Shown: positions 7,571-27,619 of the stretch, in pieces
Position numbering within the stretch: the first letter of the stretch is position 1
Layout: each line of letters opens with the position of its first letter
Assembly (NCBI RefSeq): GCF_046105845.1
Contig: NZ_CP151004.1
Direction: 5' to 3' (one strand)
Length of the DNA: 64,000 nucleotides
Source: Escherichia coli
GTDB taxonomy: Bacteria; Pseudomonadota; Gammaproteobacteria; Enterobacterales; Enterobacteriaceae
Made by a program: the position numbers and the translations under genes
Notes under the pieces: model-generated
Database searches by the model: none
Seen by the model: the letters and a program-made list of their open reading frames with translations, nothing else
Told to the model about the DNA's origin: nothing

Positions 7571-8995
7571 TTACTGCATTAACAGGTAGATGGTGCTGTC
7601 GCCGCGCTGAATGTTCAGTGCCAGCACAGACGGTTTGCTGTCGAGAACTTTACGCAGTTCAGCGATGTTTTTCACTGCCTGCTGGTTCGCGCCGATAATC
7701 ACATCACCTTTCTTCAGGCCGATCTGCGCAGCCGGAGTGCCCGTTTTCACGTTGTTCACTACCACGCCCTGATCTTTGCCTTTGTTGCTCATCTCAGCGC
7801 CTTCAATACCGTTGAAGATGGAGCTGGAATCAACCTGATTCTGGCTGCTCTGCTGCAGTTCCAGATTCACGTTGACCTGCTTACCGTCGCGCAGCAAGCC
7901 CAGGGTCAGTTTGCTGCCCACCGGCATAGTACCCACCTGAGCACGCAGGGCGGCAAAGCTGCTGATTGGCTTACCGTTCAGTGAGGTGATCACATCTCCC
8001 GCTTTAATGCCCGCTTTTGCAGCGGAGGAATTAGGCAGAACCTGGCTTACGAAAGCACCGCGCTGGGCGTCAACTTTCATCGCTTTCGCCAGTTCGGAGT
8101 TCAGCTCAGTCCCCATAATACCCAGCTCACCGCGTTTCACCTGGCCGTATTCCACCATCTGCGAGGTCAGGTTTTTCACCATGTTGCTCGGGATAGCAAA
8201 ACCGATACCGATGTTGCCGCCGTCCGGTGCGAGGATCGCGGTGTTGATACCGATCAGTTCACCGTTCAGGTTAACCAGCGCACCACCGGAGTTACCACGG
8301 TTGATCGCTGCATCGGTCTGGATGAAGTTTTCGTAGTTTTCGGCATTCAGCCCGCTACGCCCCAGCGCAGAGACAATCCCGGAAGTTACCGTCTCACCCA
8401 GACCAAACGGGTTACCAATCGCTACGGTGTAATCACCCACGCGCAGTGCATCAGAATCCGCCATCTTAATTGCGGTCAGGTTTTTCGGGTTCTGGATCTG
8501 GATCAGCGCGATATCAGAGCGCGGATCTTTGCCGACCATCTTCGCGTCGAACTTACGGCCATCGCTCAGCTGGACTTTAATCACCGTCGCGTTATCAACA
8601 ACGTGGTTGTTGGTGACGACATAGCCTTTATCGGCATCAATGATGACGCCGGAACCCAGCGCCATGAATTTCTGTTGCTGGCCGCCACCATTACCGCCCT
8701 GGCCCCCCTGGCAGAACGGAGAGCTCTGGAACGGAGAACCTTCCTGGCAGAACGGAGAATCATCACCGAAGAACTGCTGGAAATTACGCGGCATACGCGG
8801 CGTATTAACGGTTGTGCTACCTTCTACGTTAATGCTGACCACTGAAGGCATCACCTTTTCGAGCATCGGTGCAAGGCTTGGCATCTGCTGGGCTGTCGTT
8901 GCTGAAGAAGTCTCAGCCGCCGTTGCAGAGAGCGGAGATAACGCCAAACCTAAACTCAGAGCCAGTGCACTCAGTGCTAATGTGGTTTTTTTCAT
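7571..8995 (-). CDS. degP: Periplasmic serine endoprotease DegP/HtrA
   Basis: 474-aa ORF MKKTTLALSALALSLGLALSPLSATAAETSSATTAQQMPSLAPMLEKVMPSVVSINVEG...; trypsin-like plus two PDZ regions. Confidence 0.97.
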   Translation of the reverse strand: MKKTTLALSALALSLGLALSPLSATAAETSSATTAQQMPSLAPMLEKVMPSVVSINVEGSTTVNTPRMPRNFQQFFGDDSPFCQEGSPFQSSPFCQGGQGGNGGGQQQKFMALGSGVIIDADKGYVVTNNHVVDNATVIKVQLSDGRKFDAKMVGKDPRSDIALIQIQNPKNLTAIKMADSDALRVGDYTVAIGNPFGLGETVTSGIVSALGRSGLNAENYENFIQTDAAINRGNSGGALVNLNGELIGINTAILAPDGGNIGIGFAIPSNMVKNLTSQMVEYGQVKRGELGIMGTELNSELAKAMKVDAQRGAFVSQVLPNSSAAKAGIKAGDVITSLNGKPISSFAALRAQVGTMPVGSKLTLGLLRDGKQVNVNLELQQSSQNQVDSSSIFNGIEGAEMSNKGKDQGVVVNNVKTGTPAAQIGLKKGDVIIGANQQAVKNIAELRKVLDSKPSVLALNIQRGDSTIYLLMQ

Positions 8996-9040
8996 GTATT
9001 TCAGTCTCGATTAACAGATAACGCAAAATTGCTGTGTTCT

Positions 9041-20028: not shown

Positions 20029-22272
20029 TTAGAAGCGGAAGGTTGCGGTTGCAACGACCTGACGTTCTGCGCCCCAGAAGCAGCCATAGGTGTTAAAGCA
20101 GCTGGCGACGTATTCACGATCGAACAGGTTGTTGACATGCAGCGCCACGTTGGAGCCAGCCATGCCGACTCGCGCCAGATCATAACGCACTAACGCATCC
20201 ACGACCGTATAACTTCCCACTTTAAAGGAGTTAGCCGGATCACCATAGCTGGAGCCAGTATAACGACCACCGGTGCCCAGCGTCAGACCTGAAAGCGGAC
20301 CGTCAAAGAAGGTATAGTCAGCCCACAGCGAAGCCATGTGTTTTGGCACCTGTGCAGGCGTATTGCCTTTATAGGTAGTGTCGGTGGTGTATTCCGCATC
20401 GGTGTAAGTATAAGAACCGACTACGTTAACACTCGCCGACAGCGCCGCTTTCGCTTCGATTTCTACGCCACGAGCGCGGATCTCGCCACCTTCAACCGAG
20501 AAGAAGGAACCCTCAGGGTCCGCCATCAGGTTGTTGGTTTTAGTGAGATTATACACGGCACCAGTAACCACAATTGGACGATCTTCCGGTACATATTTCA
20601 CGCCGACTTCATACTGCTTACCTTTAGACGGTGCGAAAATATTACCATCCTTCCCAACTTGCGAAGAAGGTTCAAACGATTCGCTATAGCTGAAGTAAGG
20701 TGTTACACCATTATCAAACAGGTAGTTAACACCACCACGCCAGGTAAACTGTTTGTCATCACGTTTATCGGTCGTTCCCGCTACGCGGTTAAGAGATTCT
20801 TGATCTGCCCAGTCGTAACGACCGCCCAGGGTGACCAGCACTTTATCCCACTGCGCCTGATCCTGAACATAAACGCCCGTTTGCTTCTGCTTATTCAGAA
20901 TGCGGTACGGACCGGAGTTATCCGGGTCTTTCGCATTGAAGTCGAAATCGGTATTCACCGGATTGTACAGATCGAGCAGCGGTACGGAGTCGTCGTAACC
21001 AAACCAGGCGTTGATGTCATTACGCATACGCATAAAGTCGACACCGGTCAGCAGGGTGTGGTCGATATCGCCAGTGGCAAACTTGCTCTGCAACTGGGTA
21101 TCAACGGAGAAGTTTTGCAGCTTCTCATCATCAACGACGTATTTACGTGCCAGGTAGTGACCTTTATCGGCTGGCGCTAAAGCGGCACACTGTTTGCTGT
21201 AAGCATTCGCCGGATCGGAGCAGACGCCGTAACCATAAACGCTGTTTTGCGAGGTTTTGTTTTCAGCAAAGCGCAGGTTCTGACGCACAGTAAAGGTGTC
21301 GTTAAATTCGTGATCGAAGCTATAGCCCACCATCTTCTCATTACGAGAATAGGTGTTGTTCTTCGCCCCTTCGTTAAAATCTGTCGGCAGACGCTTACCG
21401 TTCGGCAGCGGCTCAACGGTACCCTCTTTCGGCAACCAGCCGTAATAACCGGTTTCCGGCTCGTTCTGGAAGTAAGAAAGGAAGGTGAAATTGGTTTTAT
21501 CATCCGGACGCCAGGTGAACGCCGGTGCAATAGCATAACGCTGCTCTTCTGAGCCTTTCTGCTGGGCATTGGCAGAACGCGCAAGACCGGTCAGGCGATA
21601 AGAGTAAACACCGTCATCATCCAACGCATCGCTAAAGTCAAAACCAGTCTGGAACAGGCTGTCAGTACCGGCTTTAAACTGAACTTCTTTCAGCGGTTCA
21701 GTAGTCGGACGCTTGCTGACCATATTCAACAGACCGCCAGGACTGCTTTTACCGTAAAGCACGGAAACCGGGCCACGCATAATTTCAGCGCGTTCCAGCA
21801 TATACGGGTCAATGACCGCATCGTTATAGAAGTTGCCCTGCAACTTCAGGCCATTCAGATAGTTATTCTGGCTTTGGCCTTCTGCCGCAAAGCCGCGAAT
21901 GATCAGGTGGTCATAGGTGTTGGATGCGCCACGCGTACCAACAGAGACACCCGGCGTGTAGCTAAGCGCTTCTTTTACCGACTTCGGCTGATGCAGCGCC
22001 ATCTCTTCGGCGGTCACAACAGAAATAGACTGTGGCACTTTTTGAATCGGCGTATCGGTTTTAGTGCCGGTAGCTGACTGTCGCGCCGCAATAGTTGCAG
22101 CCGGCCCCCATGCGCTTTCTTGCGGCGCAGGTGCAGCGGTAACGGTGATAGTGTCTTCTTTCGGTTCAACCGCTGCCTGTGCATAAACAGACATGCCGCT
22201 AACCGCTGTGGCTACTACAACTGCGATTTTACGCAGTGAATGTTTTGGCTGAGCAGTTTTGGAACGCGCCAT
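20029..22272 (-). CDS. fhuA: Ferrichrome outer membrane transporter (TonB-dependent receptor)
   Basis: 747-aa ORF MARSKTAQPKHSLRKIAVVVATAVSGMSVYAQAAVEPKEDTITV...; terminal ...ATATFRF. Confidence 0.97.
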   Translation of the reverse strand: MARSKTAQPKHSLRKIAVVVATAVSGMSVYAQAAVEPKEDTITVTAAPAPQESAWGPAATIAARQSATGTKTDTPIQKVPQSISVVTAEEMALHQPKSVKEALSYTPGVSVGTRGASNTYDHLIIRGFAAEGQSQNNYLNGLKLQGNFYNDAVIDPYMLERAEIMRGPVSVLYGKSSPGGLLNMVSKRPTTEPLKEVQFKAGTDSLFQTGFDFSDALDDDGVYSYRLTGLARSANAQQKGSEEQRYAIAPAFTWRPDDKTNFTFLSYFQNEPETGYYGWLPKEGTVEPLPNGKRLPTDFNEGAKNNTYSRNEKMVGYSFDHEFNDTFTVRQNLRFAENKTSQNSVYGYGVCSDPANAYSKQCAALAPADKGHYLARKYVVDDEKLQNFSVDTQLQSKFATGDIDHTLLTGVDFMRMRNDINAWFGYDDSVPLLDLYNPVNTDFDFNAKDPDNSGPYRILNKQKQTGVYVQDQAQWDKVLVTLGGRYDWADQESLNRVAGTTDKRDDKQFTWRGGVNYLFDNGVTPYFSYSESFEPSSQVGKDGNIFAPSKGKQYEVGVKYVPEDRPIVVTGAVYNLTKTNNLMADPEGSFFSVEGGEIRARGVEIEAKAALSASVNVVGSYTYTDAEYTTDTTYKGNTPAQVPKHMASLWADYTFFDGPLSGLTLGTGGRYTGSSYGDPANSFKVGSYTVVDALVRYDLARVGMAGSNVALHVNNLFDREYVASCFNTYGCFWGAERQVVATATFRF

Positions 22273-22491: not shown

Positions 22492-25023
22492 TTAATTACT
22501 ACCAAACATATCCTTGATCCAACCGGCTACACCGTCGCTGTCTTTCTGCTCTTGCTGAGCAGGTTGCTGTTGCGGCTGTTGCTGCGGCTGAGAAGACTGA
22601 TCAAACGGATTGCCTGACGGTTGCTGCTGCATCTCACTCTGCTGGCACAGCGATTGCGGATCGCTGGTCCAGACCGGCAAGACACGCATGCCACCGCTGC
22701 AAACAAAGTTGCCGTCGTAGTCCACGCCCATATCTGCAATATCTTCTGGCGGAACAAGATTCAGCGGTGTTGGCGTCTGGTTAGCCAGATAACGCTGATA
22801 AATCGACATTGCCCCGCTGGCTCCATACAGTTTGGTCGGTTGGTTGTTATCACGGCCTACCCAGGTGATGGTCACCGTGCTGCCGTCAATGCCCGCAAAC
22901 CAGGTATCTACGTTATTGTTGGTAGTCCCTGTTTTCCCTGCCAGATGCAGGTTCGGGTATTTCGCCCCAAGCTGACGACCCGTACCGCGTTGTACAACCT
23001 GCTGCATGGTCCATAGTGTCAGATACGCCGCCTGCGCCGGAACAGCGCGTTCCGCCTGCGGGAAGCTCTGATACAGCACTTTGCCATCTTCCGCGATTAC
23101 CGAACGCAGCGCAGAAAGCGGTGCACGGTTACCACCGCTGGCGATGGTCTGGAATGCCTGCGCCACTTCGATTGGCGTTAAGTTCAACGCCCCCAGCAGC
23201 ATTGCCGGAACCGGATGCAGCTGATCTTTCGGTACGCCCAGTTTGATCCAGGTCTCCGTAACCGCAGGCAGCCCCAGCGCCATCCCCAGATTTACCGTCG
23301 GCACGTTCATCGAACGGGTCAACGCATCCACCAGCATCACTCTGCCGCTTTCGCTATAACGACGGTCATCGTTCTGCGGTGACCAGACCTGGCCATTCGG
23401 CTGACGTAGCGCGATTGGCGCATCCGCAATCCACGTGTTCAGGCGATAGATTTTCGGCTGGCTTAAGGCCGTCAGATAAGTCGCTGGTTTTGCAAGAGAA
23501 CCAATCGAACGACGCGCCTGCATCGCACGGTTGTAGCCCGCAAACTGCGGCTCAGAACCACCGACCATCGCACGAACTTCACCACTAAAGCGGTCGACGA
23601 CCACAATCGCAGTTTCAAGATCGCTCAGCTTACGCTGTTTCTTCAGTGCCGGAATGCCTTCCACGGCGGCTTTTTCTGCCGCGTCCTGTGCCACCGAGTC
23701 AAATGTAGTGAAGATCTTCACGCCGGAGAGATCTTTTACCTTATCGCCCAGTTTTGCCTGCAGCTCCTGACGCACCAGTTGCATAAAGGCTGGCTGAGGA
23801 GAGATCACCCCACCGCGCGGCTGAACACCCAGCGGACGTGCACTCAACATGTCATAGAGTTCTTGATCAATAATCTGTTGCTGTTGCAGCAAACGTAGCA
23901 CCAGGTTACGTCGCTCCAGCGCCAGTTTCGGGTTACGCCACGGGTTGTAGATGGACGCCCCTTTCACCATACCCACCAACAGCGCCTGCTGATCGAGGCT
24001 CAATTCTTCTACCGGACGACCAAAGTAATACAAGCTCGCCAGCGGGAAGCCGCGGATTTCGTTGTCGCCGCTCTGACCGAGATACACCTCGTTCATATAC
24101 AGCTCAAGAATACGGTCTTTGCTGTAACGCGCGTCCATGATCAGCGCCATGTAAGCTTCGTTCGCTTTACGCCAGTAAGAGCGCTCGCTGGAGAGGAACA
24201 GGTTTTTCACCAGCTGTTGCGTCAGCGTACTCGCACCCTGCACCGTGCGTCCGGCGGTCAGGTTTGCCAGCACCGCACGTCCGATGGAGTAGAGACTGAT
24301 CCCATCATGCTCGTAGAAATGGCGGTCTTCTGTCGCCAGCAAAGTATCCACCAGCAAATCAGGGAAACCACTGCGCGGCACAAACAGACGTTGCTCACCG
24401 TTTGGCGAGGAGATCATGGTGATCAGGCGCGGATCAAGACGGAAGAAACCAAACTGACGGTTGTTCTCCATATTGACGATGGTCGCCAGATGATCGCCAT
24501 CAAAGGTCAGACGCGCACGCACCTGCCCTTCTTTACTGTCCGGGAAATCAAACGGACGGCGGATCATCTCAATGCTGTTGGCCTGCACGGTAAATTCGCC
24601 AGGACGGGTCATTTTCGACACCTGACGATACTGGGTCGCCTCCAGCAGCTTCACCATCTCGTTCTTGCTGATGGTCATGTCTGGCTCAAGGTTGACCATC
24701 CGGCCATAAACTGCCGCGGGCAGTTGCCAGACCTTACCATCAATACGGCTGCGAATTTTTTGATCGAGATAAACGCCGTAAATGGCGATCAGCACGGCAA
24801 AAACGATAGCCAGTTTTAGCAGCAGCCATAGCCAGCCGCGTTTGCCACGAGGCTTACGCCCTTTGCCTTTGCCCTTACCTTTGCGTGGCATCGGTTCTTC
24901 ATCCTCATAGTCATCATAATCGTCGTAATCGTCATCTTCGTAACGACGACGGCTTACCTTTTGTTTGACCGGACGCGTCGGTTTCCCTTTGCGTCCAATT
25001 GGCTCGCGGTCATTCCCGGCCAT
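22492..25023 (-). CDS. mrcB: Penicillin-binding protein 1B (bifunctional glycosyltransferase/transpeptidase)
   Basis: ORF 22492-25038 (-); start taken at [23 protein letters not shown] (843 aa); acidic [14 protein letters not shown] and KGKGKGKG tracts then transmembrane helix. Confidence 0.95.
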
Positions 25024-25116
25024 GCTTTTTCTCCGCAATATTCAGGCGCAAAAGCCCGATTTTCTGTTCTTCTGTTGCAAGACAGAAGAAGATATCTCTC
25101 AAATTTGCTTTGGTCT

Positions 25117-27546
25117 TCACGAATACTTTTTCGTCCGTCGCGTCGGTGCAGTATTTGCCGGGTCGTCCGGCCAGACATGTTTGGGATAACGCCCTTTCAT
25201 CTCTTTTTGCACCTCACGGTACGCTCCTTTCCAGAAGGCGCTCAAATCTCGTGTGATTTGTAATGGCCTTTGGGCAGGGGAAAGCAACTCCAGCACCAGC
25301 GGCACGCGCCCCTGGGCGATCGTCGGATTGGTGGCCTCACCAAACATCTCCTGCATTCTCACCGCCAGCGCGGGCGGGTTATCTTCATGATAACGAATGG
25401 CGATTCGGCTTCCCGTCGGCACAGTGTAATGCGCAGGCAATTCACTATCCAGACGTTGCTGCATTCCCCAATCAAGTAATCCGCGTAGTGCCTGATAAAT
25501 GTCGAGTGATTTCAGGCCGCGTAGTGAATGCACGCCGCTCATATGCGGCAGTAGCCACGTTTCCAGCGTCGCCAACAAACTCTCATCATCAACCGCTGGC
25601 CAGTCATATTCCGGCAACCACTTTGCGGCGCATAACAAACGCAAGCGTAGCTGTTCCGCTTCCGCCGTCCAGTTGAGCACGCTTAAACCTTTATCACGAA
25701 TGCCGTTAAGCATCGCCTGATGCAACTCGTCTTCCGAGGGTTTCGCCAGTGGCTGCACTTTCACCGTCAACTGACCGATTTGCAGCCGACGCCAGGCTTT
25801 CAGCGTACCTTGCGCGTCATCCCACTCCACAGTGTCAGACTGCTGTACCAGCTGCGGGCAGAGTTGTACTAATTCATCGATATCGACCGGTAGCGCCAGT
25901 AAAATCCGCGCATCCGGCGAGGCGCTGCCCTGCAATAATAACGGTGCGATCAACCATTCGTGGCGGCTTAGCGCATCGTCGGCATCGAGCATCGCCCCCA
26001 TGCCGTTTGCCAGTTGATAGCGTCCATCTTGCCCACGGCGACGAGCAATGCGATCGGCATACGCCCCGGCAAGTAGCGGCGCGATAAGCGAACTGTCTGC
26101 CTCACCGCCGCGTACGTTTAAACGTTTTAACAGTTGCTGACTACGTTGCTGCCAGGCGGGTTGATTGCGCGAAAACTCCACGCCCAGGTCACTATTGCCC
26201 ATCCGTGGCGGCTCTTCGAGAATGGCGGCAATTTTTGCCGCGGTAGCAGCTTCGTCGTCGTTCTTCGCGCTAACCAGCATTGCCGCTAAACGCGGATCGT
26301 TACCCAGCGCTGCCATTTTTTGCCCTTGCGCACTAAGCCGTTCACCGTCCAGCGCCCCCAGCATCCGTAACAGGCGTTTCGCGGCCAGTAGATTCACCGT
26401 TGGCGGTTGATCCAGCCAGCTCATCTGCGCCGGATCGCTGCATCCCCATTGCAGTAATTCCATCAGCAAACCGGAAAGATCGCTTTGTAATATTTCCGGT
26501 TCACTTTGCGCCGCGGCGCGTTCGGCTTGTTCTTTGGCGATTAAATGCAGGCAGATACCCGGCTCCAGACGCCCGGCGCGCCCGGCACGCTGCGTCATGG
26601 ATGCCTGGCTAACGCGTTGAGTAATCAGTCGCGTAAGCCCCGTGCGCGGATCAAAACGCGCCACACGCTCCTGGGCACAATCCACCACCAGACGAATACC
26701 TTCAATGGTTAAACTGGTTTCAGCAATATTGGTCGCCAGCACCACTTTGCGCATCCCTTGCGGTGCCGGGAGGATCGCTTTTCGTTGATCGTTCAGCGAC
26801 AACGCGCCATACAGCGGGCAGAGCAACACATCACTGCCGATGCGCGAAGCCAGTTGTTCCTGCACGCGCTGAATTTCTCCGACGCCAGGTAAAAATAACA
26901 GTAATGATCCACTTTCCTGACGCAGCGTTTCGGCGGTGGCTACCGCAACGGCTTCGTCAAAACGCTGATGCGCGGGCAGCGGTAAATAACGGCGTTCAAC
27001 CGGAAACGAGCGCCCTTCTGAGATGACGACGGGCGCTCCTGGCAGCATTTGCTGCAAGCGGTCGTTGTCCAGCGTAGCCGACATAATCAGCAGTTTAAGG
27101 TCATCACGCAGACCTTGTTGCACATCGAGTAACAGCGCCAACGCCAAATCCGCCTGCAAGCTGCGCTCATGAAACTCATCGAGGATCACCAATCCAACAC
27201 CGCTCAGTTCAGGGTCACGCTGGATCATGCGCGTCAGCACGCCTTCGGTAACCACTTCCAGGCGGGTATTCGGCCCGACGCAGTTTTGCGCACGCATCCG
27301 GTAGCCAACGGTATCGCCTGGCTTTTCGTTAAGCAGCTCCGCCAGTCGTTGCGCAACGTTACGCGCCGCCAAACGACGCGGCTCCAACAGGATAATTTTC
27401 CCGTTAATGCCGGGATGCGCCAGCAGTTGCAGCGGCAGCCAGGTTGATTTCCCGGCCCCGGTCGGCGCACTTAATAACACCTGCGATGCACAATCGAGAG
27501 CGGTAAGTAATTCAGGTAAGACGGCAGCAACGGGCAACGACGACAC
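25117..27546 (-). CDS. hrpB: ATP-dependent RNA helicase HrpB (DEAH-box)
   Basis: ORF 25117-27591 (-); GTG at 27544-27546 gives VSSLPVAAVLPELLTAL... (809 aa), the length I recall for HrpB; motifs GAGKST and DEFH. Confidence 0.85.
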   Translation of the reverse strand: MSSLPVAAVLPELLTALDCASQVLLSAPTGAGKSTWLPLQLLAHPGINGKIILLEPRRLAARNVAQRLAELLNEKPGDTVGYRMRAQNCVGPNTRLEVVTEGVLTRMIQRDPELSGVGLVILDEFHERSLQADLALALLLDVQQGLRDDLKLLIMSATLDNDRLQQMLPGAPVVISEGRSFPVERRYLPLPAHQRFDEAVAVATAETLRQESGSLLLFLPGVGEIQRVQEQLASRIGSDVLLCPLYGALSLNDQRKAILPAPQGMRKVVLATNIAETSLTIEGIRLVVDCAQERVARFDPRTGLTRLITQRVSQASMTQRAGRAGRLEPGICLHLIAKEQAERAAAQSEPEILQSDLSGLLMELLQWGCSDPAQMSWLDQPPTVNLLAAKRLLRMLGALDGERLSAQGQKMAALGNDPRLAAMLVSAKNDDEAATAAKIAAILEEPPRMGNSDLGVEFSRNQPAWQQRSQQLLKRLNVRGGEADSSLIAPLLAGAYADRIARRRGQDGRYQLANGMGAMLDADDALSRHEWLIAPLLLQGSASPDARILLALPVDIDELVQLCPQLVQQSDTVEWDDAQGTLKAWRRLQIGQLTVKVQPLAKPSEDELHQAMLNGIRDKGLSVLNWTAEAEQLRLRLLCAAKWLPEYDWPAVDDESLLATLETWLLPHMSGVHSLRGLKSLDIYQALRGLLDWGMQQRLDSELPAHYTVPTGSRIAIRYHEDNPPALAVRMQEMFGEATNPTIAQGRVPLVLELLSPAQRPLQITRDLSAFWKGAYREVQKEMKGRYPKHVWPDDPANTAPTRRTKKYS

Positions 27547-27619
27547 AAAACGCTCCAGAGGGTTAACATTCTTCGCGGCACATTGTAGCATCGCGGTAAT
27601 TCATAACCGAGTGCCTCAC

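Follow-up and report, generated by a model that had tools for sequence, protein, structure and literature searches.

The mrcB gene (ponB; 22492..25023, minus strand) of the window, by which is meant the whole 64,000-nucleotide stretch of Escherichia coli DNA analysed here, is intact, and what makes its length unusual is natural allelic variation and not an error. As read from the ORF and its translation it encodes PBP1b alpha with 843 codons plus stop, and this form is one of the less common alleles, in itself unremarkable, of a coding repeat prone to slippage. We consider it highly probable that the explanation holds as a whole, namely that the cytoplasmic tail of the protein is disordered and built of three blocks, and that the loss of one Asp from it derives from slippage and is probably neutral.

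Gene identity and the one-codon difference from K-12

The gene is identified as mrcB, and its product as PBP1b, by sequence comparison. The protein matches the NCBIfam equivalogs NF007061 (1729.6 bits against a cut-off of 1120, residues 1-842) and TIGR02071 (1247.6 bits against a cut-off of 717.75), its Pfam domains follow in the order PBP1_TM (residues 1-78), UB2H (112-196), Transgly (208-378), and Transpeptidase (472-713), and it is near-identical to the chains of PDB 3VMA and 5HL9 over residues 52-803, with one substitution (V781I) in the printed alignment. An hrpB ORF (25117-27591) and an ORF of 747 aa (20029-22272) lie on the same strand as mrcB; features annotated under the genome matches give the synteny hrpB-mrcB-fhuA, as in K-12. 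The equivalog and Pfam matches and this synteny bear out the first-pass annotation, which had named the gene mrcB/PBP1b and placed the tract under study in the cytoplasmic N-terminal tail. K-12 PBP1b (MrcB/PonB, b0149, NP_414691.1) has the same synteny, alpha start, gamma start, and domain order as the window copy; the hrpB-mrcB spacer differs, with 93 nt in the window and 195 nt in K-12. To judge from its near-identity to the K-12 enzyme (two differences), the window PBP1b would have glycosyltransferase and DD-transpeptidase activity.

The alpha start is the ATG at 25023-25021, and the stop codon ends at 22492. A GGAG Shine-Dalgarno (SD) sequence of this start was read from the sequence 7 nt upstream of the ATG (25031..25034, minus strand). 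Start codon and SD are as in K-12, and the same codon is annotated as the start in K-12 as well as in AF40; among complete genomes AF40 comes nearest to the window over hrpB-mrcB, and its RefSeq mrcB likewise has 843 codons. The longest ORF begins at a TTG (25038; 848 aa); this start was rejected in favour of the ATG at 25023 with its GGAG and its annotation in K-12 and AF40, and the count of 843 codons therefore holds. Translation of the ORF from this ATG returned the 843 codons given in the earlier reading, and the 844 codons put forward there for K-12 were found as well, the mrcB of K-12 MG1655 being translated into 844 aa.

The suspicion that the shortfall was a single triplet inside the tract proved correct: alignment assigns it to exactly one Asp codon, a GAT, in the acidic run. 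The K-12 sequence GAA GAT GAC GAT GAT TAC is opposed to GAA GAT GAC GAT TAC in the window, a single 3-nt gap by which EDDDDY becomes EDDDY at the protein level; the Asp run concerned (GAT GAC GAT, codons 30-32; 24928..24936, minus strand) was located by pairwise and multiple alignments. Over 300 nt of aligned 5' regions, window and K-12 differ by three substitutions and this one 3-nt gap, and over the whole protein by the missing Asp and V781I and nothing else. The deletion shortens the alpha tail from 64 to 63 residues and changes its net charge from +5 to +6; it does not alter the gamma isoform, either start site, the FtsA-binding peptide, or the catalytic domains.

Layout, composition, and predicted disorder of the tail

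The 63-residue tail consists of three blocks with net charges of +8 (residues 1-27), -12 (residues 28-43), and +10 (residues 44-63). At its tip lies the N-terminal peptide (codons 1-14; 24982..25023, minus strand), which is reportedly FtsA-binding and is delimited here from conservation and from PMC13423804. The acidic D/E/Y tract (codons 28-43; 24895..24942, minus strand; net charge -12) shows a 9-nt GAY-GAY-TAY periodicity by direct reading of the codons; this DDY period is under the score threshold of Tandem Repeats Finder and was not reported by it. The basic G/K/R juxtamembrane tract (codons 46-63; 24835..24888, minus strand; net charge +10) contains a hexanucleotide repeat (AAR GGN)x4 encoding KGKGKGKG (24859..24882, minus strand), the only repeat that Tandem Repeats Finder reported (24860-24884; period 6, 4.2 copies). 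Between the two charged tracts stands Pro-Met (P44-M45). The first-pass annotation had described an acidic and then a basic tract at 24841-24945; both blocks are present and the coordinates are about right, with some two codons clipped at either end (R25 to G63, 39 residues, corresponds to 24951-24835), and the Pro-Met between the blocks had been left out. The tract is followed directly by the transmembrane helix, drawn from W64 to about residue 86 (24766..24834, minus strand) according to the AF2 helix and the starts of the crystal constructs. A further low-complexity tract, rich in Q and P, was recognized from low-entropy windows near the C-terminus (residues 806-828; 22540..22608, minus strand).

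Chance comes nowhere near accounting for the acidic and basic tracts. When the window PBP1b was shuffled 20000 times, 12 D/E in 16 residues never occurred (maximum 10), nor did 16 D/E/Y in 16 residues (maximum 13) or 16 G/K/R in 18 residues (maximum 14). The net charge of 15-residue windows ranges from -12 to +9 in the tail and from -5 to +4 in the remaining protein, and charge segregation in the tail has a z of 6.9 against 5000 shuffles. The tail is predicted to be an intrinsically disordered region: Shannon entropy is below 2 bits in its 16-residue windows, and in an AF2 model built on an alignment of 47 sequences, residues 1-60 have a pLDDT of 48-55 without secondary structure, followed by a helix at residues 63-94 (pLDDT 84-93). 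The PDB holds no entry containing residues before about 52, the constructs beginning at 52-57.

The tail as such is already known, from Pfam PF14812 (PBP1_TM), from the alpha and gamma isoforms, and from FtsA-mediated septal recruitment. Residues 1-78 of the window protein match positions 1-85 of the 85 in the PF14812 profile with 87 bits (cut-off 27.8); the model already covers both charged tracts, and compared with the K-12 member the window copy is short by one residue.

Length alleles in E. coli and their origin

Probes of 100 and 103 nt, covering codons 11-44, were compared with 5426 complete RefSeq E. coli genomes, of which 5424 matched; an allele of exactly the probe length scores at least 99% identity, and a 3-nt gap about 97%. 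The K-12 form with four Asp was found in 5229 of these 5424 genomes and the window form with three Asp in 179; a second 3-Asp haplotype (GAC for GAT, with an additional GAA giving EEEE; e.g., AHM8C160RI and DSM 103246) occurs in 15 genomes, and a 9-nt deletion of one whole DDY unit in a single genome, CFS3292. No allele longer than the K-12 form was present in the 5424 genomes. Tract length thus varies among strains, as the first reading had supposed, with 5229 of 5424 genomes carrying four Asp and 194 (3.6% of the complete E. coli genomes matched) carrying one or other 3-Asp form.

Length also varies outside the Asp run. Another 100-nt probe, over the basic tract, places 143 genomes in the range of identity that a 6-nt gap would give, which makes up to 143 carriers of such a deletion; the two genomes sampled from this band both span 94 nt, compared with 100 nt, and one GGC-AAA (KG) unit is deleted in DSM 103246 and MS10860. 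The ST131 strain 2822 lacks 9 nt (CCG CAA CAG) in the C-terminal Q/P tract, which gives 841 aa. Translation of full-length E. coli PBP1b genes gave 841, 843, or 844 aa, and other lengths are to be expected from the shorter acidic and KG alleles. Every length difference found among the compared sequences lies in one of three low-complexity tracts (acidic, KG, and Q/P). Genomes with at least 99% identity over hrpB-mrcB were counted to see whether the 3-Asp allele marks a single lineage; the 5.1-kb haplotype of the window proved to be rare itself, one genome having 99.1% identity and the others at most 98.0%. A literature search for a prior description of this length polymorphism returned nothing beyond the Navarro papers.

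There is next to no chance that the one-codon difference is an artefact of sequencing, assembly, or start placement. Low-complexity repeats are prone to error, and 30EVA2, which is annotated as frameshifted, has a probable homopolymer error in this region (+1 A at codons 11-13); the gap of the window, however, is exactly 3 nt and in frame, its 100-nt allele is identical in 179 independently assembled complete genomes, a second 3-Asp haplotype recurs in 15, RefSeq annotated the AF40 gene with the same start and length, and start codon and SD are those of K-12. A sequencing artefact was rejected because a 3-Asp allele, of one haplotype or the other, is present in 194 complete genomes.

Each of the indels is the in-frame loss of one copy of a short direct repeat (3, 6, or 9 nt). 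The repeats involved are GAT/GAT, 9 nt between two GATTA, GGCAAA/GGCAAA, and 9 nt between CAACAG repeats. The independence of recurrent indels was judged from the number of flanking substitutions over 336 nt. CFS3292 has 0 substitutions from K-12 over this length and E69, which is labelled E. coli yet is about 94% identical to the window, has 18; both carry the same 9-nt deletion. MS10860 (on a 4-Asp background) and DSM 103246 share the KG deletion and are separated by 7 substitutions, and AHM8C160RI, 1 substitution from DSM 103246, keeps all four KG units. A 3-Asp allele is also present in the divergent SCPM-O-B-8794. E. albertii, E. whittamii, and two further Escherichia species have the 4-Asp/(KG)4 form, and since these four other species carry the K-12 form, the window allele is derived.

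Identical deletions on unrelated backgrounds fit the pattern expected of slipped-strand mispairing, and most likely one GAT of the tandem GAT-GAT was lost by replication slippage; short-tract recombination could also shift an allele from one background to another. The mrcB indels resemble those of the slipped-strand mispairing class in being in-frame losses of repeat copies that recur on different backgrounds, and differ from them in that the mrcB repeats have only 2-4 copies and show no phase-variable on/off switching. Nothing suggests a contingency-locus function for the mrcB repeats.

Conservation, the gamma start, and function of the tail

One genome per species was scanned, which gave 80 Enterobacteriaceae loci. 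The three-block tail is present in 80 of 80 species, with a length of 58-69 residues and a net charge of +1 to +10. The acidic block is always present; it comprises 10-19 residues, of which 8-16 are D/E and, as a rule, 2-3 are Tyr. The basic block comprises 18-28 residues, yet its K/R count is 8-10. Charge compensation between the blocks was rejected, as acidic and basic counts show no positive correlation across the species (r = -0.27). In the 47 aligned Enterobacteriaceae sequences M1, A2, G3, D5, R6, E7, P8, I9, G10, R11, and K12 are invariant, as are R17, P18, K20, K22, R25, and R26; residues 1-27 are nearly invariant throughout, and the alignment gaps are nearly all inside the two charged tracts. 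Residues 1-14 of the window protein are identical to those of K-12, including R6, P8, I9, G10, and R11.

The conservation of Tyr within the acidic block is fair, most species having 2-3 of these residues, and it hints at something beyond pure spacing.

E. coli PBP1b occurs as the isoforms alpha, made from the first ATG, and gamma, made from an internal start at Met46 (PMC13423804). The homologous codon of the window is the internal ATG of Met45 (24889..24891, minus strand), and in the RefSeq K-12 annotation the PBP-1Bgamma CDS starts at the codon homologous to 24891-24889. An SD-like core, GAGGA, is formed by the codons of E40-D41 (24902..24906, minus strand), 10 nt upstream of this ATG, and the last acidic codons (GAG GAT GAA GAA CCG) probably double as the ribosome-binding region for gamma. 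Among the 80 species the internal start is ATG in 64, GTG in 7, and absent in 9. Of the species with an internal ATG, 63 out of 64 show an SD core at -17..-5; Glu at -15 is encoded by GAG in 55 of 59 species, and Glu at -9 and at -6 by GAA in 44 of 52 and 44 of 58 species, respectively, all these being raw counts uncorrected for shared ancestry. Of the 9 species that have no internal start, 4 likewise show the SD core, GAGGA arising easily from Glu-Asp codons.

Such figures might be explained by the acidic tract being constrained mainly as mRNA, a purine-rich and unstructured stretch that drives gamma initiation, with the amino acids incidental and the deletion altering the gamma rate. The spacing of GAGGA from the internal ATG, the near-constant SD core, and the preference for GAG at -15 and GAA at -9 and -6 are in keeping with this, as are the predicted folds, in which the 25-35 nt before the AUG are unpaired for either allele. 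Nevertheless we hold it to be quite improbable. All 9 species without an internal start keep the acidic block; the block is therefore more than a ribosome-binding site, and selection at the protein level, apart from gamma, is indicated. Moreover, about 40 nt separate the deletion from the internal SD downstream of it, which is open in either allele, and the structure predicted around the internal start (folds of 86 and 89 nt) is not significant against shuffles (z = -1.4 and -1.3).

According to Navarro et al. (Nat Microbiol 2026, PMC13423804), enrichment and activity at the division site are confined to alpha; its septal recruitment needs the N-terminal peptide and is abolished by R6E, and on supported bilayers the peptide displaces FtsZ from FtsA, consistent with binding at the FtsZ-binding site on FtsA. 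The same authors report that the first 14 residues are conserved in Enterobacteriaceae and credit Chalut et al. (2001) with the finding that the first six residues matter. Their peptide (K-12 residues 1-60) is the same as the window sequence except for one Asp. R6, invariant in the 47-sequence alignment used here, was more variable in the 113 hits of Navarro et al. (PMC13423804), who placed function in the N-terminal tip and left the acidic block and its natural length variation unaddressed.

The tract is best explained as the middle and membrane-proximal part of the disordered cytoplasmic tail of PBP1b alpha. The tip of the basic N-terminal peptide (residues 1-27) would, as the literature has it, attach to FtsA and so take the enzyme to the site of division; the acidic block would serve as a length-tolerant, highly charged spacer between this FtsA-binding tip and the membrane-proximal basic block; and the latter, beside the membrane helix, would fix the N-in topology by the positive-inside rule. 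Gamma retains the basic block and has neither the acidic block nor the FtsA-binding peptide. Slippage at GAT-GAT most likely produced a derived minority allele that is one codon shorter and probably neutral. Because the linker spans a range of nine residues among related species, a change of one residue is most likely neutral. The frequency of the 3-Asp forms is also compatible with mild selection in either direction or with hitch-hiking in a few clones.

It has alternatively to be considered that the length of the Asp run is tuned, the acidic block folding back electrostatically on the juxtamembrane basic block or on the basic N-terminal peptide and setting the availability of the alpha tail to FtsA or anionic lipids, so that a single Asp gained or lost would shift the activity of alpha and the variant would be adaptive in its lineage. 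The segregation into +/-/+ blocks (z about 7 against shuffles), which is conserved in all 80 species, the fairly conserved Tyr positions, and the restriction of the block to alpha, the septum-specific form (PMC13423804), speak for such a role. An acidic count that ranges from 8 to 16, a tail charge from +1 to +10, and the negative r make tuning to a single residue unlikely, and the indels recur and persist at low frequency as near-neutral slippage products would; we consider adaptive tuning improbable, if slightly less so than the mRNA reading. On a par with it in its small probability is the broader proposal that the mrcB repeats (Asp/DDY, KG, and QQQP) are slippage hot spots with partly non-neutral products, the run lengths setting the reach and charge of the alpha tether and its FtsA recruitment, and the last four acidic codons being under dual selection. 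If this were true, measurable differences in the fortification of the septum would exist among natural E. coli lineages, through the lengths of their Asp and KG runs.

The preferred reading remains that of a length-tolerant spacer with a probably neutral slippage allele, and its overall importance is low, the window form being an ordinary length variant in the known tail of a thoroughly studied enzyme. What is added is modest and lies in the census: three length-variable tracts, identical indels that recur, a flexible acidic block, and a constant tip and K/R count. For quality control of annotations it follows that 841, 843, and 844 aa all occur for intact E. coli PBP1b. In the design of constructs, the GAG-GAT codons are part of the gamma start region and should be preserved or deliberately changed, and the pattern gives reason to regard the acidic block of tagged or truncated PBP1b as a linker that tolerates change.

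Source lineage and the hrpB–mrcB spacer

The lineage from which the window derives is, by sequence comparison over window positions 1–27591, poorly represented among complete RefSeq E. coli genomes. No complete RefSeq E. coli genome reached 99% identity over positions 1–22000 (best, 98.8%), and over hrpB–mrcB only AF40 reached at least 99% (99.1%), all remaining complete genomes being at 98.0% or below. Over the first 1200 nt of mrcB, the gene for PBP1b, K-12 is 97.0% identical and is nearer than any other sampled Escherichia species.

The spacer between hrpB and mrcB (25024–25116) is 93 nt long in the window and in AF40 versus 195 nt in K-12, which carries a G+C-rich, imperfectly palindromic insert of 102 nt (beginning CCCTCTCCCTGTGGGAGAGGG). 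This insert is presumably akin to a boxC-type intergenic repeat. In strain 11899A, the first part of the K-12-type insert is present and 57 nt normally found upstream of the mrcB start region are absent.

Two RNA features elsewhere in the window, both on the minus strand and both matched at Rfam gathering level, are as expected for this chromosomal region: the HtrA (degP) 5′-UTR thermometer (8990–9035), directly upstream of a 474-aa ORF (7571–8995), and the t44 sRNA (746–832). A search of the 64,000-nt window for tRNA genes found none.

Variable and conserved stretches of PBP1b

Besides the acidic Asp/DDY run and the basic KG repeat at the N-terminus, a third mrcB repeat that varies in length is the low-complexity, Q/P-rich tract at C-terminal residues 806–828 (22540–22608, minus strand). 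ST131 strain 2822 lacks 9 nt of this tract (CCG CAA CAG); the loss falls between CAACAG direct repeats and gives a PBP1b of 841 aa.

Residue R6 was invariant in all 47 Enterobacteriaceae sequences of alignment A4, whereas it was more variable than P8, I9, G10, and R11 among 113 JackHMMER hits [Navarro et al., PMC13423804]; the discrepancy probably reflects a difference in sampling.

The internal gamma start

The mrcB gene of E. coli 30EVA2 (NZ_CP138419.1; L003 in our set) is annotated as a frameshifted pseudogene, the frameshift consisting of one additional A in CGC AAA GGG (codons 11–13). Because it lies upstream of Met46, the gamma reading frame is intact; the additional A is either a homopolymer sequencing error or the mark of a natural gamma-only strain.

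The internal start was compared at the position homologous to window 24889–24891 in 80 Enterobacteriaceae species (entries L013–L088) and is not universal: ATG is found in 64 species, GTG in seven (e.g., Klebsiella pneumoniae, Leclercia), and the start is missing in nine (e.g., Pseudescherichia vulneris, Phytobacter, Kluyvera ascorbata), where APAP, SAP, or KPRS stands in place of PMP. Judged from these sequences, the nine species may produce the long PBP1b isoform only.
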